Below, one piece after another: positions 2,536-36,374 of a DNA stretch of 64,000 bases. A program made the translations under genes and the position numbers. The stretch lies in NCBI GenBank assembly GCA_963535465.1, contig CAUSWF010000002.1, forward strand, positions 64,606 through 128,605, in the 5' to 3' direction. A model generated the notes under the pieces. The model worked only from the letters and a program-made list of their open reading frames with translations. It was not told the origin of the DNA and ran no database searches. How positions within the stretch are numbered: position 1 is the first letter of the stretch; every line of letters begins with the position of its first letter. Source of the stretch: an uncultured Erysipelotrichaceae bacterium. GTDB lineage: Bacteria > Bacillota_I > Bacilli_A > RF39 > UBA660.

Positions 2536-3855
2536 TTATTTATTTAAATGAAGAATGCTTCTAAGTTTAACAAAATCAATATTACCTCCATTAAGACATT
2601 TCTTCATCTTTCCACCTTTTTTATCTTCTCTTACTTCAAACTGTGCTTTAGTTTTAGAAGATTGACTATTAAATTTTTTAATTAATCCTTGAAGTTCTTG
2701 TTCTTCCGCTGGAGTAAGTTTACCTTTAGCTCTTTTAGAAGTAAGTTGATACTGACGTGCATTATCTTGTTTAGTATAAGTAGGAACAACTTTTACATTA
2801 GAATTACCTGTACGCATATTTGAAACTGTAGAAGAAATTGCTTTTTTCTTAGTTTTATCTGCTGGCATTTCCATACCTTCTTCAGCAGTTCTCATTCCAC
2901 GACAAGCAGAGCATATACGACCTCCTGCTTTAAAATAATATTTATAAGTACCTTCAGGACATTCCCCTTTAATTTGTTTAATATAGTTTAATTTAGCACC
3001 AAGCTTTGCCATCTAGGTCTGTTTATTAGCTTCTTCTTGAAGATATTGTTGAAACTATTTCCAAGATTCTTCATTTGGTTGTAAATTATTAGCTTTACAA
3101 AATTCTGCAAAAGCTCTTTTAATTTCTTCGTTTTGGTCTAATTGACCTCCATTCTAATATTTCATACTATCGTTATTATAATCAAGTCTAATTCTACGTC
3201 TATCTCTAGCTCCAATATGCCCTTTAATACCTGTAGCTGCAAGATATTTTTCCCAATCTTCATCTTTACTAACATCTAATCCTCTATTTTTTAATTTAAT
3301 AGCTAAATCATTAATAAATAAATCTTTCCCCGGATTTATTAATGCGTTTCTAAATTGATCTATATTTTGTATACCATTATATCCTCTATCCATTAAAGAT
3401 CCAGATTGATTACGTAATCCTTGTCTTACAATAGCTCTATTTACTTGATTAAGTCTTGGCTATACATTTTTTCCAATTTCTGGTGTATAATTGTACACAT
3501 TAGGAGTAGTATTAAAAGAATGGTTTTCAAATTGTTCAGGAGTAGTTTTATCACCGTATCTAAATGTTTTAGCCATATTTAAAGCATTAGCTGTTTCATT
3601 TCCCCATAAACCATCTTCTTTAATATAACCTACTTCATTTCCATACATAGCATTGTACCATTTCTAAAAAGCAAGGGCATTATCAAAACCATGAGATTCT
3701 ACTCCATTATTATCCCATGTAATATTATTTAAATCTGGATTAGCATTAGCAAAAGCTTGAGCATATCCTAAACCATTATAACGACCTCTTTTAACTATTG
3801 CATTATCTTGTTTATATCTATACTAATCCCACTTTTGTACTGGTTTTTTTATCAT
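2536..3855 (-). CDS. Hypothetical virion/cell-wall-associated protein (439 aa), recoded
   Basis: ATG 3855-3853 to TAA 2538-2536. It joins track ORFs 3460..3648, 3154..3393 and 2536..3012 in one frame through six TAGs (3823, 3664, 3460, 3154, 3055, 3013). DGLWGNETANAL resembles a peptidoglycan-binding repeat. Confidence 0.6.
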
Positions 3856-4076: not shown

Positions 4077-4662
4077 TATTATTAAATCTTTCTGTTAGTC
4101 CAGAGTTAAAAATAGCTATAAGACTATGTTCATTAACAAGAACAAAACCTTTACGATAAAATGGTATTATAGTTTCAGATGGTTTACGCCACATTACTAT
4201 ATCACCTACTTTAGTATAAGTGCATTTAGTTCCTACTTCCATAACTTTTCCTACTTTAATAAATGGATCTTCTTCATGCATAGCACCATCTTCTCTACTT
4301 TTATAAATAGGTGCTTTACCTCCAAGATCAACAATTAAACCATCAACTTTTTTAATTCGTTGAAAAGGATTAACTACAAAAGGAGAAATAATTATGCCTT
4401 CGTAAAGAGGTTTCATTTCTAAAGTATCTAGGTTAATGTCTTTACTATAATCTGTTAATTGTTTGTTATAATTATCTAAATTAGATAAATATTCATTTAC
4501 ATCTTCTTTATGCTTATTTTCTTTTTCTATAACAAGATCATCTATTGTTTGATCTTTATTTACTATGAAACTTTTAGAATCTTCTGAACTTACTTTGATT
4601 GCTACTTTTTCTTTATTAGACGGAGTAGTATTAACGTCTCTTCCATTAATTGTTCTTATCAT
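4066..4662 (-). CDS. Hypothetical protein, C-terminal half possibly GroES/Cpn10-like fold
   Basis: Intact ORF-track ORF. KPLYEGIII...GKVMEVG...KVGDIVMW loosely resembles the Cpn10 pattern. Weak. Confidence 0.4.
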   Translation of the reverse strand: MIRTINGRDVNTTPSNKEKVAIKVSSEDSKSFIVNKDQTIDDLVIEKENKHKEDVNEYLSNLDNYNKQLTDYSKDINLDTLEMKPLYEGIIISPFVVNPFQRIKKVDGLIVDLGGKAPIYKSREDGAMHEEDPFIKVGKVMEVGTKCTYTKVGDIVMWRKPSETIIPFYRKGFVLVNEHSLIAIFNSGLTERFNNNDK

Positions 4663-4663
4663 A

Positions 4664-4903
4664 TTACCATTTATTACTAGGACATTTTTCTTCTTTTACA
4701 GAAGTTTTTAAATTGATAAAACATCCACATAGACCACATATTTTTTGATTATCTATTACCTCTAAATATTTACATCTATTACAATACTTTAATCTATTAA
4801 AAGAAAGCTCTTTATTTTTTCCAATAGTATAATTGAATAAACCTTTTATTATATGTTTAATTTTCGTTGGAAAATTCTCCATAATATTTTTTAGCTGCTT
4901 CAT
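4664..4903 (-). CDS. Small Cys-rich (zinc-ribbon-like) protein
   Basis: ORF-track ORF with CNRC...CGLCGC...CPSNKW. Paralogous to 5474..5740. Confidence 0.5.
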   Translation of the reverse strand: MKQLKNIMENFPTKIKHIIKGLFNYTIGKNKELSFNRLKYCNRCKYLEVIDNQKICGLCGCFINLKTSVKEEKCPSNKW

Positions 4904-5776: not shown

Positions 5777-7693
5777 TTAATATTCTATCGGTTTAAGTTT
5801 GGCTAATTTTTCTTGTTTAAAAACAGACTTTTTATAAAATTTTAGCATTGATTCTACTTCTTTCTTTAAATAAGGTAAATGATAAACTGTTTGATTATCA
5901 TTATGATCAAAGTGTACTAATATTAAATCTTTAATAGTATATTCTGGATTAATTTTTTGTAACATCCATGCATAAGTAGATAACTGTAAAGCATAATGCC
6001 AGTAATTGCAATCTTCCAAAGTGTTCAATGGATACTTCATTTTAACAGAACTACGAGTTTTAGTATCAAAGCCACTATGTTGTTTGATTTCTTTATTAGT
6101 ATTATGTGTAATTATACATTTATTAGTAACTAAAAAAGTATGTAAAGGGCTGTCTACTTCTAAACATTGTGTTGGAATAGTTTCTGTAATTTCTACTTTA
6201 TTAATATTTCTAAATGAATTTTTATCTATTTTTGGAAATTCAATTTCTTGATTTCTTATTAAAAAAGGATTTAATCCATTAGTTGAGAAACATACATCCC
6301 AAGCAATAAATTCTTTACCATTACATTTTTTTATTACTTCAAAAACAGTAGATTTTATACCTAATGTTCCTAATAATTTTACAGTACAATCTCTTTGCCA
6401 TTCTTGGCCCGTAGACATTACAAAACGTTTTCTTTTAGGATGATAATAACCATCAGTATCCATTAATCCTCTTAATAAGTCTAATCTTTGATTAAATGAA
6501 GCTGTATAATACTCTTCTGGAATATGTTTATTTTTTAAAAGATTCATTTTATTTAATAAAGTTCTTAATCCATAAACAGTCCTCATTTCAGTATTTTCTC
6601 TATCAGGATTATGTTGGGCATTTTCCCCTATATCAAAGCCACGATGTTTTAGTTCATCCCATAATTTAGATTGACTTGCTTGCGTAATAATACCACAATC
6701 TTTTGAACCATCACCTAACCAAACTCCTAATAAATAAGGATCTATTAGTAAATCTTTAGTTGGAGTATTAATAGGTTTTGGATTTAGTATTTTAGGAATT
6801 GTATAAGAATTTCTAGTATAAGTTTGCATATAATTATAAAGTTCCTTTGTAGTTATTACTCCTTTAGTATAAGGTGTTTTTTTACTTTGATTTTTAAATG
6901 ATACTTCCCAACGGTGATCTTCATCAGCTACTATAGTGTCTCCGTTATCAAAAGTTATTTTGAAGCATGGATTATTATGTATAGATGATTTATGCAAAAT
7001 TCGTGTAGGATTACCGTCTCCATCAAAAATAACATCCCCTTCTTTTACAGCTCCTATAGTAGTCCATCCAGAATTTGTTAATATTTCTGTGTCTAAAGGT
7101 AATCCTTTCCAATCCATGACTGTTATTTCATTACCTTGTTTAACTAATAAATCAATCTGTCCTGCAATTCTTAGCATGTTATCAGGAGAAGTACGAGAAA
7201 TTAAGTATTCAGGATATACTCCATTTTCTAAATCTAACGCAGTTCTTCCTTTATCGCATATAAATTTACCTCCTACACCAAATTTCTTTAGTGATACATT
7301 AGCACCCATCTTATACATACTTTGCTCTAGATCTGAATGTATTTTAGTACCTCTTTCACAAGATTCTCTATTAGTTTTATCCCATTCATCTAAAATACCT
7401 TGTTGTGCTTTATTAAAATCAAGTTCAGTAATATCATACGTACTTAAAAGTTCTTTAGGTATTTTGTGTGTATTCAACAAAGATTTTCTTTCTATTTTCC
7501 AAGCATCTGAGGGAATTAACTTTTCTAATGCCTTATATCCAGACCAAAAATCTTTATCAAAGGGTTGAGCAAACTTTTCTATTAAAGTTGTTACTGAAAT
7601 AAATCTATCATTTGTATCTGTATTCCAGTATACATGGTCATTTTCACTGAATGCAATGCTTCCATTCTGTTTGTCTATTTTCATATTATTCAT
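5777..7693 (-). CDS. PD-(D/E)XK (RecB/Cas4-like) nuclease interrupted by an intein
   Basis: Extein motifs are ERGTKIHSDLE, GQIDLL...VMDWK|..|TNK (D-x-K-T restored on splicing) and YALQLSTYAWML (QxxxY). Residues 197-531 are intein-like. Confidence 0.8.
   Translation of the reverse strand: MNNMKIDKQNGSIAFSENDHVYWNTDTNDRFISVTTLIEKFAQPFDKDFWSGYKALEKLIPSDAWKIERKSLLNTHKIPKELLSTYDITELDFNKAQQGILDEWDKTNRESCERGTKIHSDLEQSMYKMGANVSLKKFGVGGKFICDKGRTALDLENGVYPEYLISRTSPDNMLRIAGQIDLLVKQGNEITVMDWKGLPLDTEILTNSGWTTIGAVKEGDVIFDGDGNPTRILHKSSIHNNPCFKITFDNGDTIVADEDHRWEVSFKNQSKKTPYTKGVITTKELYNYMQTYTRNSYTIPKILNPKPINTPTKDLLIDPYLLGVWLGDGSKDCGIITQASQSKLWDELKHRGFDIGENAQHNPDRENTEMRTVYGLRTLLNKMNLLKNKHIPEEYYTASFNQRLDLLRGLMDTDGYYHPKRKRFVMSTGQEWQRDCTVKLLGTLGIKSTVFEVIKKCNGKEFIAWDVCFSTNGLNPFLIRNQEIEFPKIDKNSFRNINKVEITETIPTQCLEVDSPLHTFLVTNKCIITHNTNKEIKQHSGFDTKTRSSVKMKYPLNTLEDCNYWHYALQLSTYAWMLQKINPEYTIKDLILVHFDHNDNQTVYHLPYLKKEVESMLKFYKKSVFKQEKLAKLKPIEY
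6101..7105 (-). mobile_element. Intein (335 aa) with LAGLIDADG homing-endonuclease domain; class-3-like WCT signature
   Basis: Block A is GLPLDTEILT (Gly, not Cys/Ser, at position 1). Block B is TIVADEDHRW (W two residues after His). LAGLIDADG motifs are LLGVWLGDGS and LLRGLMDTDGYY. Block F is TQCLEVDSPLHTFLV (Cys where Asp is usual). Block G is IITHN followed by Thr+1. Confidence 0.75.
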
Positions 7694-15780: not shown

Positions 15781-15782
15781 AG

Positions 15783-15870
15783 TTGCCTCGCTAGGATTCG
15801 AACCCAGATTGACGCCCTCAGAAGGCTACAGATTTAGAGTCTGCCGTAATAACCATTATACTACAAGGCA
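15783..15870 (-). tRNA. Suppressor tRNA, anticodon CUA (reads TAG), 88 nt with long variable arm (type II architecture)
   Basis: Reverse complement: TGCCTTG TA GTATAATGGTTATTAC G GCAGA CTCTAAA TCTGT AGCCTTCTGAGGGCGTCAAT CTGGG TTCGAAT CCTAG CGAGGCA A. It has a 7-bp acceptor stem (U1-A72), a 7-nt loop with C34 U35 A36, and A73. Confidence 0.85.
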
Positions 15871-15876
15871 TTAAAG

Positions 15877-15948
15877 TTATCCCACTAGGATTCGAACCCA
15901 GACTAAGAGGGTTAGAGCCTCCTGTGCTAGCCGTTACACCATAGGACA
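15877..15948 (-). tRNA. Suppressor tRNA, anticodon CUA (reads TAG), 72 nt, tRNA-Gln-like
   Basis: Reverse complement: TGTCCTA TG GTGTAACGGCTAGCAC A GGAGG CTCTAAC CCTCT TAGT CTGGG TTCGAAT CCTAG TGGGATA A. U1-A72 is present, and the D arm is nearly identical to the phage tRNA-Gln(UUG) at 31788..31858. Confidence 0.85.
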
Positions 15949-18307: not shown

Positions 18308-18636
18308 ATGCTAAAGTAAATATATTATTTTTATTTTCAAATTATATTTTTAATTTTAACATTTTTTTATTTAATCTTTCCCCCCCCATTTTAAAAATGT
18401 AGTTCGTTTTAAATTTATTATAATATCGTATAAACGAGAGTATAATTAAAAAATTTATAAGTTATATGAGAGAGAGTCCACTCCCTTCGGTCGCCCCCCG
18501 CCTATCGTCGTGGGAAAATAGTCTACATTTATAAACTCCTATATGAATTTAGGGGATTGAACATTAAAAGATTGTTTAATCCAGGCTAAGTACGCATGCC
18601 TTAAATTGCGCACACCTCAAAAAGGATTAAGACTTA

Positions 18637-18942
18637 ATGAATTTCATTAATCTTACTCCACACGCTATTGTGCTGAACGATGGTGCAGTGTACCAGCCTT
18701 CTGGTACTATAGCACGCGTTTCGGCTCAGTTCAGCGAGGTTGTAGATGGATTCTGCACACAGACCTTCGGGGATGTTGTAGGACTGCCTGCACCTCAGGA
18801 TGGTGTGTACTACATCGTATCTGCTATGGTCTTTGCAGCCACAGACAGAGTTGATGTAGTTGCACCAGCCACTGGGCATCCTGCGTGTGTAAGGAATGAC
18901 AAAGGTCAGATAGTATCTGTACCTTGCTTCCTTAGACACTAA
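18637..18942 (+). CDS. Hypothetical protein (101 aa), G+C-richer island
   Basis: ORF-track ORF starting MNFINLTPHAIVLNDG.... The antisense ORF 18634..18975 is judged a shadow. Confidence 0.55.
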   Translation: MNFINLTPHAIVLNDGAVYQPSGTIARVSAQFSEVVDGFCTQTFGDVVGLPAPQDGVYYIVSAMVFAATDRVDVVAPATGHPACVRNDKGQIVSVPCFLRH

Positions 18943-19067
18943 GGACGTGTGGGACTTTGGTTTAGGCAATACCAAAGGTTGTAGATAAAATTGCAGCTGA
19001 GCTAAAGGAGTGGTAGCTTTATGTCCACTCCGTAGTTTATAATTCTTTTATAAACTTTAATAAAATC

Positions 19068-19691
19068 ATGGCAAAACGTGATTCTTATTTAAAGCTTATA
19101 GTCAGAGCAGAATTCGAAGAGAAGACTGTCTGTGCTTATGAAGATGGGGATGAAACTTTCCACACAATACATCACGGCGATGCTTGTGAGGCAAGTACAT
19201 TTCAGGTCTTCAAAAGGGCATGGGTAGAAGTTTATTCGATCTTTCCTGCGGAAAAGAAGTTATTGAAAGAATTTAATGACTTAGTTGCATCTAAGAAGGA
19301 TGCATTCTACGCATTAAGAGATTCTTTCAGTGAGTTCTATGAATTCCCTAAGATCGAGATAAACACTTCTCGTGTGGAGTTCTGCGAAGAAGAGAGAAAG
19401 CTAGGAGAGTTAGACCTCACTGAAGAAGAGTATGATCAGTTAAAAGCTGATAAGGACTTCTTTAGTAAAAGAGGTACTTTCGTTATATGCTATAACGGAA
19501 AGAACTTCAATGGTCTAGCTATTGCTGGTCAACCTGGATTCAACTCTAAATTTAACTGGGAACAGTTAAGATCAGAGTGGCATCCTAAGGAGATCAGCGG
19601 CATTCTTAGAGAAGATTGGGATTACCTGAAAAACAGGGATTACAGTCTTTTCGAAGACTTGCTCGAGGCTAGTCTCTCTGAACTGATGTAA
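19068..19691 (+). CDS. Hypothetical protein (207 aa), island
   Basis: ORF-track ORF, no motif recognised. Confidence 0.55.
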   Translation: MAKRDSYLKLIVRAEFEEKTVCAYEDGDETFHTIHHGDACEASTFQVFKRAWVEVYSIFPAEKKLLKEFNDLVASKKDAFYALRDSFSEFYEFPKIEINTSRVEFCEEERKLGELDLTEEEYDQLKADKDFFSKRGTFVICYNGKNFNGLAIAGQPGFNSKFNWEQLRSEWHPKEISGILREDWDYLKNRDYSLFEDLLEASLSELM

Positions 19692-19799
19692 GCTCAAGTT
19701 GAGTTGCTAAACTCAATATATAGAAAAAATTAGCTATGCGAAGCTACCTCGCAGAATAAGTAGGTAGCATAGTTTCAATTATCCTAAACATTAATAAAT

Positions 19800-19901
19800 A
19801 TGGATAAAAGAATCGTCATCATTGAACCAGACGGACGTGTTGCCGTGTTCAATGATAGAGGGGCTTTCCTCGCTTACTTAGAAAGTAAGAAAGAGGCGTA
19901 G
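19800..19901 (+). CDS. Small hypothetical protein (33 aa), island
   Basis: ATG 19800 gives MDKRIVIIEPDGRVAVFNDRGAFLAYLESKKEA. It ends in TAG at 19899-19901. Confidence 0.35.
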   Translation: MDKRIVIIEPDGRVAVFNDRGAFLAYLESKKEA

Positions 19902-20027
19902 TCTTCTCGAGTTGTGTTATGCCACACAACGTGTAGACAAAAGGCACCGAGTTCACTTGCTCTCGTAAAAGCAAGTACACTTTTAACAACCAGAAGTTGC
20001 GCACGACACGAATCAGTGCATAAAGTT

Positions 20028-20537
20028 ATGCAGATCGCAAATAACTTTTCAGAGAGAACTTTCGCAGCAGCATCTTTGCTGTCAGCTGGTAGCTCATTTA
20101 AGATTGTAAAGGTTGACATCTTTACAATCGCAGGTTCAACCAACAGCTACGTTGGCATTGAACTTGAAGGTCAAGAGCGTAAACCTGGCTTGCGTTCCTT
20201 GATCTCTAAGGGGCAATTAGGTCAACCTGTTACCTTTAAAGGTGGCAGAATGACAACTGCTAAGGACCAAACTGTTATCCGTAACGAAGGCACATTCGTT
20301 ACAGAGTTTAAGGATTGGTTGGCAGCTAATCCTGCAGCTACCAACAAGACTGTTTGCGAGCACTGGACCAAGGTGCTTACAGGCAAGTACCTGAATTGCG
20401 GATTCGGTTCCGCGATCATCAACGAGTACAACAAGGTACGTTGTACCCTCGCACTCTCAGTGTCAGATCAGCCTGATGCTGAGTTTACAAAGTTAACCGC
20501 AGAGCAAGAGACAGCTCTGCAGTATGCATCTATCTAA
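20028..20537 (+). CDS. Hypothetical protein (169 aa), island
   Basis: In-frame ATG 20028 within track ORF 19914..20537. The upstream 19902-20026 is hairpin-rich (gttgtg..cacaac; acttgc..gcaagt) and more likely a leader. Confidence 0.5.
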   Translation: MQIANNFSERTFAAASLLSAGSSFKIVKVDIFTIAGSTNSYVGIELEGQERKPGLRSLISKGQLGQPVTFKGGRMTTAKDQTVIRNEGTFVTEFKDWLAANPAATNKTVCEHWTKVLTGKYLNCGFGSAIINEYNKVRCTLALSVSDQPDAEFTKLTAEQETALQYASI

Positions 20538-20607
20538 GTCTCTGTCCTGAGCATGACATTAAAAGGCTCTTTCTTTTTTAATATAAACACTTTAAAAAAA
20601 TACAATT

Positions 20608-20988
20608 ATGAAAGAGAAATTAATAACAAACTTAATAAATCTAGGTGCTGAAATAGTAAACCACCCAGATAAAGACAAAGCTATTTCTTGGTTAAAGATC
20701 TGGGGATTAGATTCTCCTGACACAGAAGCTCTTATAGAACTGTTGTGTCGTAAATATAAAGAGAATAATAAATTTTCTTGTAAGTTATTTTACTGGAACC
20801 TAGAAGACGGATGGAAAGTTTATCACAAACTCAAAGAAGCTGCGAAGAATATGCAATTAGACGAAGAAACTCGCTATGTTGCAAGTAGCTTACTGCATGA
20901 CGGATCTCCGTCTGCAATGGGCTACAGTCTAAGGATGAATGCTTACTATATAGAACATTTCATTAAGATTGTAACATTTGCATGTTAA
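20608..20988 (+). CDS. Hypothetical protein (126 aa)
   Basis: ORF-track ORF. Confidence 0.5.
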   Translation: MKEKLITNLINLGAEIVNHPDKDKAISWLKIWGLDSPDTEALIELLCRKYKENNKFSCKLFYWNLEDGWKVYHKLKEAAKNMQLDEETRYVASSLLHDGSPSAMGYSLRMNAYYIEHFIKIVTFAC

Positions 20989-21024
20989 AATATCAATCAG
21001 TTATTTATTTAATATTTCACAACT

Positions 21025-21263
21025 ATGAATAAAAGCATGTTTGTGGCAACATTAAGAGGAAAAATGTTTGGCAGGAGTGTTCTTTATTTAAGATAATTGC
21101 TGATACACAAGAGCATACTTTAAACAATCTTGCTAAAGATATTAGTTCTCAATATGGAATTAATGTGTCTGAGTTTCATTATGATCATGGGTACCTTAAA
21201 GCCCAGACCTCAAATGAAAATATTACGATCTATATAGAAGAAGTGAACTTAGAAGAGGTGTGA
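21025..21263 (+). pseudogene. Small gene split across two frames at an A5 run (frameshifted, slippery, or assembly error)
   Basis: ATG 21025 encodes MNKSMFVATLRGK... and stops after 23 codons. The -1 frame continues from the ggaaaaatg run as NVWQECSLFKIIADTQEH...EEV with TGA at 21261-63 and has no start codon of its own. Confidence 0.35.
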
Positions 21264-21278
21264 CAACCTCTTCTTTTA
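21251..21278 (+). terminator. Intrinsic terminator
   Basis: agaagaggt pairs with acctcttct (9 bp), followed by TTTT. Confidence 0.7.
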
Positions 21279-21302
21279 TATTAATATTTAAAATATAGAA
21301 CT

Positions 21303-21527
21303 ATGTTTACATTCATAATTAATAGTATTGAACTACTTCAAGATAAGAAAGGTACAATAGGTCATCATGCAGTGGTAGCCTGTGCCAACGAAGTAACCGA
21401 AGAGGTTCGTCAAAAAGTGGGAGTACAAGTTAAAAAAAGATTCGGTCTAACATTGGATACAACAACAGGAAAGACATCTGATCCAGATGTCTTTCTGACC
21501 ATTTCAACTACTATTTTAATAAAATAA
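21303..21527 (+). CDS. Hypothetical protein (74 aa), island
   Basis: ORF-track ORF. Confidence 0.5.
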   Translation: MFTFIINSIELLQDKKGTIGHHAVVACANEVTEEVRQKVGVQVKKRFGLTLDTTTGKTSDPDVFLTISTTILIK

Positions 21528-21535
21528 AATAAACT

Positions 21536-21691
21536 ATGTTACAGTACAATAATAAATCACTCAGATTTTGCTCTTACTCTGATATAGAGAATAAGGAGCA
21601 TAAGTGGATCGGTCAAACAAGAACTGATGAGTTCGGACGATCATTACAAATCTGGCAAGTAGGCGATGCCTACTATGCCTGCATAGCTTAA
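21536..21691 (+). CDS. Small hypothetical protein (51 aa), island
   Basis: ATG 21536 gives MLQYNNKSLRFCSYSDIENKEHKWIGQTR...YYACIA, with a TAA stop. A strong terminator follows. Confidence 0.4.
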   Translation: MLQYNNKSLRFCSYSDIENKEHKWIGQTRTDEFGRSLQIWQVGDAYYACIA

Positions 21692-21696
21692 AGAAT

Positions 21697-21729
21697 AAAG
21701 GGAAGGCTTCGGCTTTCCCTTTATTTTTT
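21697..21729 (+). terminator. Intrinsic terminator with UUCG tetraloop
   Basis: aaagggaaggc-ttcg-gctttcccttt, followed by ATTTTTT. Confidence 0.75.
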
Positions 21730-21927
21730 CTCTATATGCTTGCTGGGAGGAGAGAAAATAGTCTTTTCTTCACTTAAAAATAGTCTATGTATAAACTGCT
21801 ACATTACCTTAGCGGAAAGACTACAATGTTTATGTATAGGCTGAAACAGCCAAAAGAAATCCTATACATCACATTGTACGCTAAATTCAATAAGTAATAA
21901 TTAAAAGTATCTTTTGGCAAATTAATC

Positions 21928-22464
21928 ATGCAAATAGTAGAAGCAATGAACAGAGAGTTGGAAATGGTAGTAGCTAATGGTGGTAAGCAGCAGGATGCTT
22001 TCAGTAGCAAGGCTATTCAGTCAGAAATTGAGACTCTTGAGAAGGGTGATGTATTCCAGGTATTTGGAAAGGTATTCAGTTCTCCTGTTCGTAGAGGTTC
22101 TAATGCCATTGCAGAATACAAACAGGCTCGTGTGTTTAAGATGAAGGATGGTAAAGCTGATCCAGACTCTATGAGAATTGTAAACATTTACCCATCATTC
22201 TTTAACAAGAGTGTAGTGGAAGTAAACGAGAAGTGTGAGCGTACAGGTCGCATTATTCGTGCTGACGGTAGTGTTTGCCAGGCTTATAAGAGCCATGGTA
22301 ATGTTACTAAAGGTTGGGATCAAGTAATCGAGGGTAAAGTAATCGAAGTTACTGAGGTAACACCTGTACTACGCAAACGTTATGGTACAGAGAACCAGAC
22401 ACAGACTACCAAAGTGTGCAACTTTGAGTATTCTGATGTTACATTACCAGAACTCGATGCATAA
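21928..22464 (+). CDS. Hypothetical protein (178 aa), island
   Basis: ORF-track ORF preceded by a roughly 130-nt structured leader. Confidence 0.55.
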   Translation: MQIVEAMNRELEMVVANGGKQQDAFSSKAIQSEIETLEKGDVFQVFGKVFSSPVRRGSNAIAEYKQARVFKMKDGKADPDSMRIVNIYPSFFNKSVVEVNEKCERTGRIIRADGSVCQAYKSHGNVTKGWDQVIEGKVIEVTEVTPVLRKRYGTENQTQTTKVCNFEYSDVTLPELDA

Positions 22465-25635: not shown

Positions 25636-25706
25636 GCTCTTGTCGTCTAATGGTAGGACATGAGACTTTCTATCGTAGAATTACGGTTCGAATCCGTGCT
25701 TGAGTA
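25636..25706 (+). tRNA. Degenerate tRNA-Glu (UUC)-like, possibly a pseudo-tRNA
   Basis: The D arm TCGTCTAATGGTAGGAC and T arm are as in the Glu tRNA at 30128. The acceptor stem has two T-T mismatches, the anticodon stem has an A-G mismatch, and position 37 is T. Confidence 0.45.
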
Positions 25707-25943
25707 CAATTATTAGTTCTTACATAATAATTACGTCATTGTATTGTCGGGTATAAAAATACAACGGTAATAGATATTCCGTAAATATATCTAAGTACAA
25801 GCAGTAGTACTAGTTAGTAATTCATAAGTAAGACATTGATTACTAAAACTGAAAACAGTTATATCTATTATAATTGCAAATATAGTATTTATAATTACAG
25901 TAAGTTTGTTATACTCTAATGTGGGTTTTGAACTTACTAAATT

Positions 25944-26010
25944 GGAGTACCAAGGCTGGAGAATCTCCCTTGCATGGAGATTGTGGGGAGTTCGATTCTC
26001 TTTACCTCCA
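25944..26010 (+). tRNA. Aberrant 67-nt tRNA-like element (Ala-UGC-like) without a normal D arm
   Basis: Anticodon hairpin (AA)TCTCC CTTGCAT GGAGA(TT). T arm GGGAG TTCGATT CTCTT. The acceptor pairs only with a bulge (GGAGTA / TACCTCC). Confidence 0.35.
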
Positions 26011-26118
26011 CATTTCTAACATGATATCGGGACAAAGCGTTGTCCAATCTAGCAGAATATAAATACATCATTTTTAAACAAGTAGTAAGTTATTGTGAAA
26101 TAATTTACTATATTTGCT

Positions 26119-26177
26119 TAGGTAGTCAACGACAGCAGGCTTGCCCCGAAAGGTTCATAGGTCCTATCCTAAGCGCA
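26119..26177 (+). ncRNA. 59-nt structured element sharing the ATAGGTCCTAT module
   Basis: A 7-bp closing stem (gcttagg/cctaagc) encloses gtcaacgac, a cccc-gaaa-gg hairpin, and cATAGGTCCTATc placed directly 5' of the closing strand, as in 25268..25353. Confidence 0.35.
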
Positions 26178-28766: not shown

Positions 28767-29540
28767 ATGAATCTTTTTAAAAAGAAAAAATATAAAATTC
28801 TAAAAGATGATTTTAGAATAATTGATGGTATTAAAGTTTATAGAATACAAGCTTTAAAATCATTTGCTAATGTAAAGAAAGGCGATTTAGGAGGATTTAT
28901 ACAATCTGAAGAAAATCTTTCACAACAAAATACTTGTTGGATATATGATGTAGCTATAGTTAAAGATGAAGTTAAAGTTCTAGACGATGCTAAAGTTTTT
29001 TCAAATTCTATATTAAGAGGTGTATTTACAGTAGAAGATGCTTGTAGTATTGTTGATTCCACTATTAAAGTTAAATTATGTGGTAGTATAAAAGATGGTA
29101 TACATCTTTGCGAAACTAATATAGATTCATATACTATGACACTTAAGACTGGAGTATTAAATAATAATGATATATATGCTACCAATTTAACAGTAATCGA
29201 CTCTTCTTTAAAATATGTAACTTGCAATGAAAGTAATTTATATTTTAATAATAGTTATTTATATGATGTAAAAATTAATAATTCTGTAACTTTAAATCAA
29301 GTAATGGCAAAACAAACTGAAATATCTTCAAATTCTGATATTTTTGTTTTTTTAAATAATTGGTCTAGCTTACGTTATTTTAATTACGTAGTTCCTAATA
29401 AGACTTGGTATGTTGGCTGTTTTATAGGTTCAGGAGAAGAACTTATTAAAAAAGCTTATAAAGACAGTGAATTATCTGGAAAAATGTATGAGAAATATGT
29501 TAAGTTTATAGAAAAACTAAATGAAGATAAGAACCCTTAG
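28767..29540 (+). CDS. Hypothetical protein (257 aa), repetitive beta-rich sequence
   Basis: ORF-track ORF. It ends in TAG (29538-40). Confidence 0.5.
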   Translation: MNLFKKKKYKILKDDFRIIDGIKVYRIQALKSFANVKKGDLGGFIQSEENLSQQNTCWIYDVAIVKDEVKVLDDAKVFSNSILRGVFTVEDACSIVDSTIKVKLCGSIKDGIHLCETNIDSYTMTLKTGVLNNNDIYATNLTVIDSSLKYVTCNESNLYFNNSYLYDVKINNSVTLNQVMAKQTEISSNSDIFVFLNNWSSLRYFNYVVPNKTWYVGCFIGSGEELIKKAYKDSELSGKMYEKYVKFIEKLNEDKNP

Positions 29541-29580
29541 AAAACGTCTTTTCTATAATTATTCTTTTTAAATAAAAAAT

Positions 29581-29718
29581 ATGGAAAAAATAATTCATCT
29601 ATATATAATTAATGAATGTGGTAAGAAATGCCCAATGTGTTGTAATAAGTTTTATAATATGGTTAAACTCCCCAGGGACTACAACCGGAATATTTCCGGA
29701 CACGGTCGCTTAGTGTGA
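29581..29718 (+). pseudogene. Truncated ORF with a CxxxCxxC (radical-SAM-like) N-terminus running into structured non-coding sequence
   Basis: MEKIIHLYIINECGKKCPMCCNKFYNM.... From about 29662 the reading frame enters G+C-richer hairpin sequence and stops at 29716-18. Confidence 0.3.
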
Positions 29719-30127
29719 ACGACAGCACGTTTAATATTTTGCAGTGTGAAGAATGAGTGATTTAATTAACCTTTCTAAGTTGAGGATATAATTTAGTTGC
29801 TCGAATACCCAGAGAACGCGTAAAACAGGGACTTTTGTATAGTTAAGTATAAAAACTATATAAGCAATATTGTATTTGCTATTAGCAATATTGTGATTAC
29901 TCTACCTACTGAGTAAGGGTCTATGTAATTATAGGCTAGGAGTGTAGGGAATAGTGGGTACAGCCTAAATTACATTATAGGAACTTCTGTACGGCGAAAC
30001 TAGAGGATGATTACTATGGATATGCGATTACATATCTAATCTGGTTGAATATTAATGTTAGTAGAGCATATATTAATTCTTTAAAAGAACAGCTACCTCT
30101 ACTTAGGATTAATCCTGTTCTTTATTT
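29662..30127 (+). ncRNA. About 470-nt structured non-coding RNA candidate abutting tRNA-Glu
   Basis: No ORF of 60 aa or more on either strand between 29541 and 30304. Hairpins include ccggaa-tat-ttccgg (29685-99), gtcg..cgac (29705-23), a roughly 60-nt imperfect hairpin at 29921-29980, and a duplicated AGCAATATTGT. Confidence 0.45.
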
Positions 30128-30199
30128 AGCCTCATCGTCTAACGGTCAGGACATAAGGTTTTCATCCTTGTAATTGGAGTTCGATTTTCCATGAGATTA
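30128..30199 (+). tRNA. tRNA-Glu (UUC)
   Basis: D arm TCGTCTAACGGTCAGGAC. Anticodon arm TAAGG TTTTCAT CCTTG. T arm TGGAG TTCGATT TTCCA. Acceptor AGCCTCA/TGAGATT has one C-A mismatch. Confidence 0.7.
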
Positions 30200-30304
30200 C
30201 TTAATTTAAAATAAAAAATTATAGCAGCAGCTGATAAAATTTACTGTAAATATTACAGTGATTATTACACATTTAAAAAATGGATAGAAAAATACAGACC
30301 AAGT

Positions 30305-30511
30305 TTGTTAGAAATTTTTGCTTTGTATGATTCGCAACAATGGGAAGATATAATTGAAAATAGTCACGATGAAGACCTTTTTGTATGTTATTTTCCTTAT
30401 TACTTAACTAAATGGCTTCTTTGGCGATGTCCTGTTAGTATCATTAGAGAAGAATTAGAAGAAAGAGGATATGAAACAAAATGGTATCATAAATTGTTTT
30501 TTAAGTATTAA
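30305..30511 (+). CDS. Hypothetical protein
   Basis: ORF-track ORF with a TTG start. The frame is open upstream to 30219 without an ATG. Confidence 0.4.
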   Translation: MLEIFALYDSQQWEDIIENSHDEDLFVCYFPYYLTKWLLWRCPVSIIREELEERGYETKWYHKLFFKY

Positions 30512-35954: not shown

Positions 35955-36273
35955 GGGGCTGTTTGGTTTTGATTGTATAAGGAAGTAAAAATAACATGCA
36001 AAGACTGATGGAAAGACATCAATTCAAATTAAATGCTAAGGTTATTCCTATGAACAGCTTTGCTGTTCGCATTGCAGCTTAATGACTGCCGAGCTGGTAA
36101 CTTGCTTAGGAACAGAAAAGTTACAAATTTATAATTAAGTTATCCCTTCTTTAAAAAGGAAATTTTCATATTGCTAAATAATATAAAGATGATGTAACAT
36201 CTATAAAAAACTAAGCATGTAAAATTATTTGAGGTATTTATACAAGACGAGAGTTCGAATCTCTCCAGCTCCA
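35955..36273 (+). ncRNA. ssrA: tmRNA (SsrA), phage-encoded
   Basis: The 5' GGGGCTG pairs with the 3' CAGCTCC, followed by A. T arm GAGAG TTCGAAT CTCTC. The conserved ACTAAGCATGTA element is present. The tag frame 36035-36082 ends GCAGCTTAATGACTGCC, as in the E. coli GCAGCUUAAUAACCUGC, and the predicted tag is AKVIPMNSFAVRIAA. Confidence 0.85.
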
Positions 36274-36374
36274 CTTTAGTTGGCTACTGACTACAAAATA
36301 GTAGATGACTTCTAGGGCCGTTCAACATGTAAACAACCTAGGTAATGGCATACCTGTTAAAATCAAAGCATGCT

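Follow-up and report, generated by a model that had tools for sequence, protein, structure and literature searches.

This locus raises the question of what occupies the roughly 470 nucleotides (nt) between a short open reading frame (ORF) with a CxxxCxxC motif and the gene for a glutamate transfer RNA, tRNA-Glu(UUC), at positions 29662 to 30127 of the 64,000-nt stretch of DNA analyzed here. This whole stretch is referred to as the window, and its relatives are designated by the labels L002-L284. A preliminary description had proposed a structured non-coding RNA, possibly of the ROOL or GOLLD class, that truncates the ORF. Comparison with relatives leads us to a modified reading: positions 29659 to 30127 are probably what remains, ~470 nt from the 3' side, of a phage gene that specifies a structured non-coding RNA. 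This RNA normally measures 500-509 nt, lies within a tRNA array on the + strand and has lost its 5' end in the window through a deletion.

A shared element in a phage tRNA array

The basic layout of the locus proved to be as first described. The CxxxCxxC ORF beginning at 29581 is present (it reads MEKIIHLYIINECGKKCPMCCNKFYNM and ends with the TGA at 29716-29718), and no ORF of 25 or more amino acids (aa) is found on either strand from 29719 to 30044. With 34.8% G+C compared to 27.9% for the window, positions 29662 to 30127 rank at the 93.5th percentile among windows of 466 nt. After its last base at 30127, tRNA-Glu follows directly at 30128 with zero spacer, and the element lies inside a tRNA array, in agreement with the proposed tRNA-island setting. 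A frame hidden by stop codon recoding was considered and rejected: the phage has amber-suppressor tRNAs, yet no frame opens. When stops were counted by type, five or more TAA codons turned up in each of the six frames between 29662 and 30127, none of which can therefore be opened by reassigning TAG or TGA. Insertions and deletions in the element among relatives comprise 1 nt and 10 nt, which we count in favor of its non-coding nature.

Relatives were traced via neighboring proteins and DNA patterns on contigs of ~145-173 kilobases (kb) from IMG/VR and metagenomes, and this search found homologous elements in phages, with changes on both sides of predicted base pairs. Scans of viral contigs with 14-mers and of metagenomes with a gapped pattern were unspecific and returned mostly chance matches; at least eight true relatives were added by them (L071, L034, L137, L164, L195, L208, L210/L211 and L240). 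At 10 loci the element measures 500-509 nt (504 nt in L003, 4524-5027) and spans from GGGAG, followed by CAUG or UGCG and then GAC, to CCUGUUCUUUAUUU; ODUJ01000020 (L164) and IMGVR_UViG_3300022494_000021 are examples of contigs with a full-length copy. The element of L002 is 726 nt long, with its first ~200 nt tandemly duplicated; here an A-type copy of this 5' module is followed by a B-type copy (4279-4700), and the remnant in the window is of the B type. By pattern scan, the module is present in only 11 IMG/VR contigs and a few metagenome contigs.

A second group of loci, referred to as clade 2, was located at L282 10400-10959, L281 10102-10666, L283 9502-10066 and L284 11253-11812, and L264 groups with L282. 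Clade 2 carries the same 5' module of ~180-210 nt, positioned 27 nt past tRNA-Gln. The 3' domain that follows is another one, ~330 nt in length, with 7 nt separating its end from tRNA-Tyr, and the distance between the flanking tRNAs is about 590 nt. The 3' domain of the window clade is thus exchanged for an unrelated one in L264 and L281-L284. Within the window clade, its identity to the most distant member, L240, is 88%, which is above every other segment or neighboring gene of the region. By sequence comparison the element appears modular, with a common 5' module and clade-specific 3' domains. The parts of the window locus are as follows.

29581-29661, + strand: stump of a radical-SAM-like gene, codons 1-27 with CxxxCxxC, 96% identical to the start of a 187-aa ORF in L003
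29659-29662, no strand assigned: deletion junction with the common microhomology ATGG, where the window reads TTTTATAATATGG followed directly by TTAAACTCCCC
29659-29800, + strand: remnant of the 5' module, B type (nhmmer with the module profile, expectation value (E) 1e-21, profile positions 60-182 of 183)
29801-30127, + strand: clade-specific 3' domain, 88-93% identical in 10 relatives
30128-30200, + strand: tRNA-Glu(UUC), called by ARAGORN, with an Rfam score of 45.2 bits compared to 57.3 bits in relatives

The junction with tRNA-Glu lacks a spacer in most relatives, even where the body of the tRNA has been swapped. In L071 (2711-2784), as well as in L034, L208, L211, L137 and L195, the D, anticodon and T stems of tRNA-Glu are replaced by other tRNA-Glu sequence. 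In these swapped copies the initial 10 nt are unchanged, as is the boundary to the element on the upstream side, which indicates recombination inside the tRNA gene. The RNA would be co-transcribed with the tRNAs, and its 3' end would be generated by the RNase P cut at the 5' end of the abutting tRNA-Glu. Since the clade 2 element lies 27 nt past one tRNA and 7 nt before the next, the same processing logic would apply there.

A junction that is kept despite exchange of the tRNA body, together with the short distance between the clade 2 element and tRNA-Tyr, would also suit a long cis-acting pre-tRNA leader with no separate role as an RNA, that is, a folding, processing or stability scaffold governing the maturation or amount of the downstream tRNA; the T-loop-like hairpin of the 5' module could in this case engage tRNA-handling enzymes. 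We regard such a leader as improbable, because the downstream tRNA varies (Glu or Tyr), the next tRNA in L240 (Leu) is ~170 nt away, and the second tRNA-Glu(UUC) of the window, at 25636, has no leader of this kind. To our knowledge, tRNA leaders are all far smaller than 500 nt.

Predicted fold and covariation

The structural model comprises 16 helices with 89 pairs, which were drawn from RNAalifold and inspection and scored on an alignment of 11 sequences. For these curated pairs, 98.8% of the 962 cells pair. Changes on both sides were observed for 11 pairs in 7 helices, compared to 4.6±1.1 after shuffling (reached in 0 of 500 shuffles) and to 0-5 when the 3' partners were slid. The 5' module (~180-210 nt) is predicted to contain a hairpin with a 17-nt loop, a T-loop-like hairpin, short hairpins, the single-stranded block CAGUGUGAAGAAU and a CUAAGUU/AACUUAG hairpin, while the 3' domain (~330 nt) would form about ten helices and a terminal pseudoknot. 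The predicted features retained in the window are the following.

29685-29699, + strand: hairpin CCGGA-AUAUU-UCCGG in the module remnant, with both-sided changes among relatives
29742-29754, + strand: invariant single-stranded block, identical in clade 1, both L002 copies and the window
29775-29796, + strand: hairpin CUAAGUU-loop-AAUUUAG, the last helix of the 5' module, with 7 of 7 pairs kept in 11 sequences and common to clade 2
29837-29861, + strand: hairpin GUAUAGUU / AACUAUAU, eight pairs, near-invariant, with one conserved G·U
29864-29894, + strand: hairpin formed by the two AGCAAUAUUGU arms, with compensated changes in L240 and L002
29897-29916, + strand: hairpin UUACUC / GAGUAA, stem invariant, loop variable in length and sequence in L002, L240 and L071
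29918-29937, + strand: hairpin (G/A)GUCUA / UAGGCU, an alternative to a 60-nt hairpin at 29921-29980
29984-30041, + strand: core almost invariant in 11 sequences, CUUCU/AGAGG around GUACGGCGAAACU, then GAUU...AAUC enclosing GGAUAUG/CAUAUCU
30061-30102, + strand: pseudoknot helix, GUAGAG (30061-30066) with CUCUAC (30097-30102), with a both-sided change
30084-30123, + strand: invariant terminal stem AAAGAAC / GUUCUUU enclosing AGGA-UUAA-UCCU, followed by AUUU up to the tRNA

Both hairpins at the start of the module vary in a complementary manner. The inner stem of the first one reads UGCG/CGCA or CAUG/CAUG among relatives, and the T-loop-like hairpin occurs with four stem variants (CUAUG/CAUAG, GUAGG/CCUAC, CUAGG/CCUAG and UUAGG/CCUAA) around the loop UUCAAGU or UUCGAAU. 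The ccggaa/ttccgg helix of the preliminary description is well supported, as it reads CCAGA/UCUGG in L002, CCAGG/CCUGG in L282 and CCGGG/CCUGG in L281, while the gtcg/cgac helix is weak and has a C·U mismatch in L002. The single-stranded block has the form CAGUGUGAAGAGU in clade 2 (L281-L284), with the sole difference at the twelfth base. In the CUAAGUU hairpin, which reads CUAAGUU/AACUUAG in relatives, a G-C pair has become G·U in the window.

Among the 3'-domain helices, the palindromic AGCAATATTGT "repeats" noted earlier do form a helix; they are not repeats, being the two strands of the single hairpin at 29864-29894. The arms of this hairpin show a G-C to A-U change in L240 and A-U to G·U in five sequences, and in L002 fully different yet complementary arms (AUACAA/UUGUAU) are found. 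For the proposed 60-nt hairpin at 29921-29980 the pairing held (97% of cells) and the covariation did not, with one covarying pair, a count that 115 of 500 shuffles match. Its 5' strand covaries better with the upstream AGUCUA: as the second pair of the (G/A)GUCUA/UAGGCU helix, nine sequences have G-C, L240 has A-U and L002 has U-A, with pairing in all cells. The core is almost invariant in the 11 sequences, so these are compatible with its predicted pairing. The pseudoknot helix, which reads GUAAG/CUUAC in relatives and GUAGA/UCUAC in the window, has two adjacent pairs changed in the window lineage. Compensated changes were also observed in the 3' domain of clade 2 (AGAGUAU/AUACUCU compared to GAAGUAU/AUACUUC), whose terminal stem AGAAGUCAG/CUGACUUC adjoins tRNA-Tyr and is analogous to that of the window clade.

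The 10-mer AACGACAGCA, which had been listed as shared with an element at 26119, is attributable to chance: 127 10-mers of the region recur in the window compared to 109±12 after shuffling, and homology to the 26119 region was rejected, since neither BLAST nor nhmmer detected any. Near that element, at positions 25906-26019 (1907-1978 in L002), a sequence resembling a tRNA has a good T arm, GGGGAGUUCGAUUCUC. It is missed by ARAGORN and reaches 27.8 bits in the relative against an Rfam threshold of 29, and may be an unusual tRNA or one in decay.

The loop of the first hairpin, GACAGUGUAUGCAGA(U/C)A between a G and a C, recurs in unrelated contigs of 35-42% G+C (L254, L255/L262, L256, L258, L259, L260, L261/L267 and L263/L266). 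Its near-invariant 17 nt sit on differing complementary stems, with 3-5 kinds of pair at three positions and a closing G-C that never varies. Of the contigs that extend into the downstream gene, most (L256, L258, L259, L260 and L263) are crAss-like according to their DNA polymerase/primase, and the hairpin lies upstream of this gene. Where the contigs extend upstream (L256, L259, L260 and L263), tRNA-like structures are found ahead of the hairpin, which is often followed by CCAGAAGUUUU; in a 364-kb contig it is located ~100 nt ahead of tRNA-Met. No Rfam family was matched by the motif among the hairpin-bearing contigs, no paper covering it was found, and the crAss-like Dulem virus 42 does not contain it.

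The sporadic occurrence of this hairpin in unrelated crAss-like contigs and its absence from Dulem virus 42 would also fit an element acting at the DNA level. It could be a hot spot of recombination, a signal for replication or packaging, or a scar left by a mobile cassette, with the hairpins forming in single-stranded DNA. The region is highly mosaic with varying neighboring genes, the 5' module is tandemly duplicated in L002, and it is joined to differing 3' parts by clade. The strand-specific evidence speaks for RNA. Conserved G·U pairs, of which there are at least six, would turn into C·A mismatches on the opposite strand. They point to the + strand, which is also the strand of all tRNAs and genes at the locus, and in all loci the orientation of the element agrees with local transcription. 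In addition, no turn of the cumulative GC skew is seen here, and the genome switches strand ~7-10 kb away. We consider a DNA-level element very improbable.

A group I intron, ORF-less or decayed and self-splicing, had been called less likely in the preliminary description, and our results bear this out. By eye, CAGGGACUUUUG and GAGUAAGAGUCU resemble R and S, the elements that form P7 in the conserved group I core (P3-P9). Covariation, however, links the S-like segment to UAGGCU farther downstream and not to the R-like segment, which contradicts a P7 pairing. The size of the element is compatible with an intron, and genomes of the Zeta group of crAss-like phages, to which we return below, hold up to 14 introns (PMC7886860). 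No host gene is present, however: in L003 the radical-SAM-like gene is uninterrupted and full-length, and the element lies between a tRNA and either a small ORF or another tRNA. Furthermore, it ends with CUUUAUUU and thus has no terminal G, and no Rfam intron model matches at E<=10. Of all explanations considered, this one is the least credible.

The deletion and the condition of the window copy

In L003 an intact 187-aa CxxxCxxC gene (2853-3416) ends ~1.1 kb 5' of the element and is followed by three paralogous genes of ~110 aa, ~500 nt of non-coding sequence, tRNA-Glu and a 97-aa gene. The CxxxCxxC gene is split in L002 and absent from L004 and L005. Window positions 29566-29667 align with the start of the gene, while the sequence from 29704/29742 onward aligns 1.65-2.0 kb farther downstream in relatives; the segment missing from the window amounts to ~1.65 kb compared to L003 and ~1.98 kb compared to L002. 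Past the junction the gene of the relatives reads ATGGATAAAG (aligned to the ORF ...FYNMDKV...), while the sequence of the B-type module is GAGATGGTTAAACTCCC (L002) or GAGAGGGTTAAACTCCC (L264). The called 45-aa ORF accordingly consists of 27 codons of the gene and 18 codons inside the RNA element. That the RNA truncates the ORF was therefore misleading, as a deletion cut the ORF and relatives keep the gene intact upstream. The short CxxxCxxC ORF is therefore no gene but the stump left by a deletion, in a locus that holds a larger element in damaged form.

Concerning the radical-SAM-like label, the motif is present, and the intact 187-aa relative gives weak matches that are all below curated cut-offs: Pfam Radical_SAM (E 0.005, 17.4 bits with a cut-off of 29.5 bits), NCBIfam NrdG2 (E 8e-5, residues 12-154) and phrog_13987 "radical SAM" (E 1e-4). 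No PDB relative of this protein was found by sequence.

The window copy is 5'-truncated, because the profile match starts at position 60 and the first-hairpin loop is missing. An 18-mer of this loop was not found in the window with up to 3 mismatches, nor did nhmmer with the module profile detect a second module copy there. Missing from the remnant are the first hairpin, which is conserved elsewhere, and one strand (5') of the T-loop-like hairpin. In the proposed course of events, a loss of 1.65-2.0 kb across the ATGG microhomology would have removed most of the radical-SAM-like gene, all three of the small paralogs behind it and the first ~59 positions of the RNA, leaving the remaining RNA joined to the first 27 codons of the gene; if still made, the window RNA would probably be the tail of the radical-SAM-like gene transcript.

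Several points weigh against a structured RNA gene at this locus. The folding energy is ordinary (z = -1.80 for the + strand, -1.89 for the - strand), and scans for promoters and terminators gave results at or below shuffle level with none assignable. The count of pair changes is inflated because the helices were partly chosen from the same closely related sequences, and the covariation rests on few events because the family is very narrow (at least 82% identity within a clade). L240 has no tRNA-Glu after its element, and in L249, whose neighboring protein is 82% identical, no element was found within 10 kb; the element is therefore dispensable and fusion to the tRNA not obligatory. Moreover, the best-conserved hairpin is missing from the window copy, and damage is evident elsewhere at the locus, including a mismatch (C3·A70) in the acceptor stem of tRNA-Glu, whose T stem also contains a G·U, and an ATA in the downstream 97-aa gene (30221-30511) where relatives start with ATG.

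Part of this evidence would also be accounted for if the family is real and the window copy a dead remnant, decaying along with an accessory locus after losing its 5' module and the driver of its transcription. The missing first and T-loop-like hairpins, the weakened tRNA-Glu (45 compared to 57 bits, with its mismatch), the ATA start, the gene reduced to a stump and the lack of the element in L249 agree with such a fate, as does a cluster of substitutions at 30038-30085. On the other hand, the pseudoknot pairs changed on both sides in the window lineage, which speaks for a fold under selection, if perhaps only up to the recent past. Other window-specific stem changes (G-C or A-U to G·U) preserve pairing, and the 3' domain retains 92-93% identity to L003 and L004. 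We consider a dead remnant unlikely, if less so than the alternatives above. Continued function of the truncated copy is plausible, with doubt somewhat outweighing confidence. We thus regard the window copy as 5'-truncated and possibly decaying, and the family as a candidate for a new, narrowly distributed RNA of phage tRNA arrays.

The phage and comparison with known RNAs

The best named matches of the DnaB helicase are crAss-like phages at ~25% identity. The Zeta group of these phages has been described by Yutin et al. (PMC7886860; also PMC12386605), and the oral and gut sources, the ~145-173 kb relatives, the many tRNAs and the suppressor tRNAs agree with it. Judging from these features, the large, AT-rich phage is probably crAss-like and of the Zeta type. 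A 638-aa ORF on the - strand (5777-7693) has a weak LAGLIDADG homing-endonuclease domain, in agreement with the intron- and intein-rich genomes of the Zeta group.

ARAGORN detected 11 tRNA genes in the window, two of them amber suppressors, and a transfer-messenger RNA (tmRNA). The two neighboring tRNAs with CUA anticodons (15782-15948, - strand; labeled tRNA-Pyl by ARAGORN) suggest TAG recoding in part of the phage, and TAG ends just 3 of 43 long stop-to-stop frames in the window. The phage tmRNA at 35955-36276 encodes the tag peptide AKVIPMNSFAVRIAA and is kept in relatives (L004 11361-11678). At a switch in gene orientation, positions 18488-22460 form an island of 41-47% G+C with protein-coding ORFs in a genome of 28% G+C, which looks like horizontally acquired DNA.

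Searches beyond the family yielded little. The blastn comparison with INPHARED phages returned tRNA matches only and no exact copy of the hairpin, and a 19-mer scan of one-per-species bacterial genomes gave chance matches in high-G+C bacteria only, so that it provides no prophage or host lead. In the distant phages L251 and L252 just a spurious weak match inside an OmpA-like gene was seen, and a sequence-based literature search retrieved nothing relevant.

All Rfam 15 families were compared by cmscan at E<=10 with window positions 29300-30500 and with the full-length element of L003 (4470-5035); in both, only tRNA models reached this limit. Across the window, the full-length relatives and the hairpin contigs, the gathering threshold and E<=10 gave tRNAs, tmRNA and noise only. 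Membership in ROOL or GOLLD was consequently not supported for either the window copy or a full-length relative, and the alternative suggestion of a new class survives, restricted to a very narrow family.

Other known RNAs were rejected as candidates. HEARO and the IscB-associated omega RNA had no Rfam match, and the neighbors are tRNAs and small ORFs without a family match. No model of a group II intron, a class marked by domain V and GUGYG...AY boundaries, matched, and the 5' GGGAGUGCG is GGGAGCAUG in other members. For tmRNA, permuted tmRNA or a tmRNA 3' fragment, both ARAGORN and Rfam were negative in the window and relatives, and the supposed "acceptor strand", located after the T-loop-like hairpin, belongs to a covarying hairpin of its own. 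RNase P RNA, defined by conserved regions CR-I to CR-V and the long-range P4 helix, gave no model match, and the CR-I-like GAGUAAGAGUCU pairs locally with UAGGCU 8 nt away. A resemblance to T-boxes seen by eye had no model support.

Tentatively, and with less assurance than we attach to the RNA gene itself, we propose an undescribed family of modular ~500-600-nt RNAs of tRNA arrays. They would be set among the tRNAs like one more "tRNA-sized unit", combine a 5' module with the 17-nt loop GACAGUGUAUGCAGAUA and interchangeable structured 3' domains, and be released by tRNA-processing enzymes. As stable RNAs in their own right they would then either form assemblies made of RNA alone, as ROOL and GOLLD do, or serve as decoys or scaffolds for factors of tRNA handling or host defense. 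RNAs of the ROOL and GOLLD type in tRNA islands are among the least understood, with a handful of classes known, and a further unrelated example would strengthen phage tRNA arrays as a habitat of large functional RNAs. Distinctive features of the present element are its swappable two-module build and the 5' hairpin common to crAss-like contigs, which, if true, would point to a conserved recognition element.

Among known systems, long non-coding RNAs of phage phi14:2 (intergenic g004-g006) are, by description, similar in being abundant and stable in a crAss-like phage; they belong to a different group and are not reported in a tRNA array. The MALAT1-mascRNA pair provides a parallel for a 3' end set by RNase P at an abutting tRNA or tRNA-like structure, as the zero spacer would imply for our element, yet it is eukaryotic and unrelated in sequence, while the element adjoins a real tRNA gene. 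Closer counterparts are ROOL and GOLLD, which have been described near phage tRNA islands (PMC12286853). ROOL (RF03087) is likewise large and structured; it occurs in phages and prophages, frequently close to tRNA islands, has no known protein partner, and resembles the element (500-509 nt) in its mean length of 581 nt. In contrast, its covariance model, with six multistem junctions and pseudoknots, finds no match to the element at E<=10, and it occurs in several phyla, whereas the element is known from two related phage clades. GOLLD (RF01998) also resides in phage tRNA arrays, at times physically linked to tRNAs, and its conserved 3' region is paralleled by the 3' half of the element, the most conserved part within the window clade. 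GOLLD differs in exceeding 800 nt and in a model whose universally conserved 3' region has no match here; between clades the element shows the reverse pattern, keeping the 5' module and swapping the 3' domain. Given its position, its size and a conserved 3' half with a more variable 5' part, the element would by analogy act most like ROOL and GOLLD, as an independent, stable RNA and not by regulating a neighboring gene.

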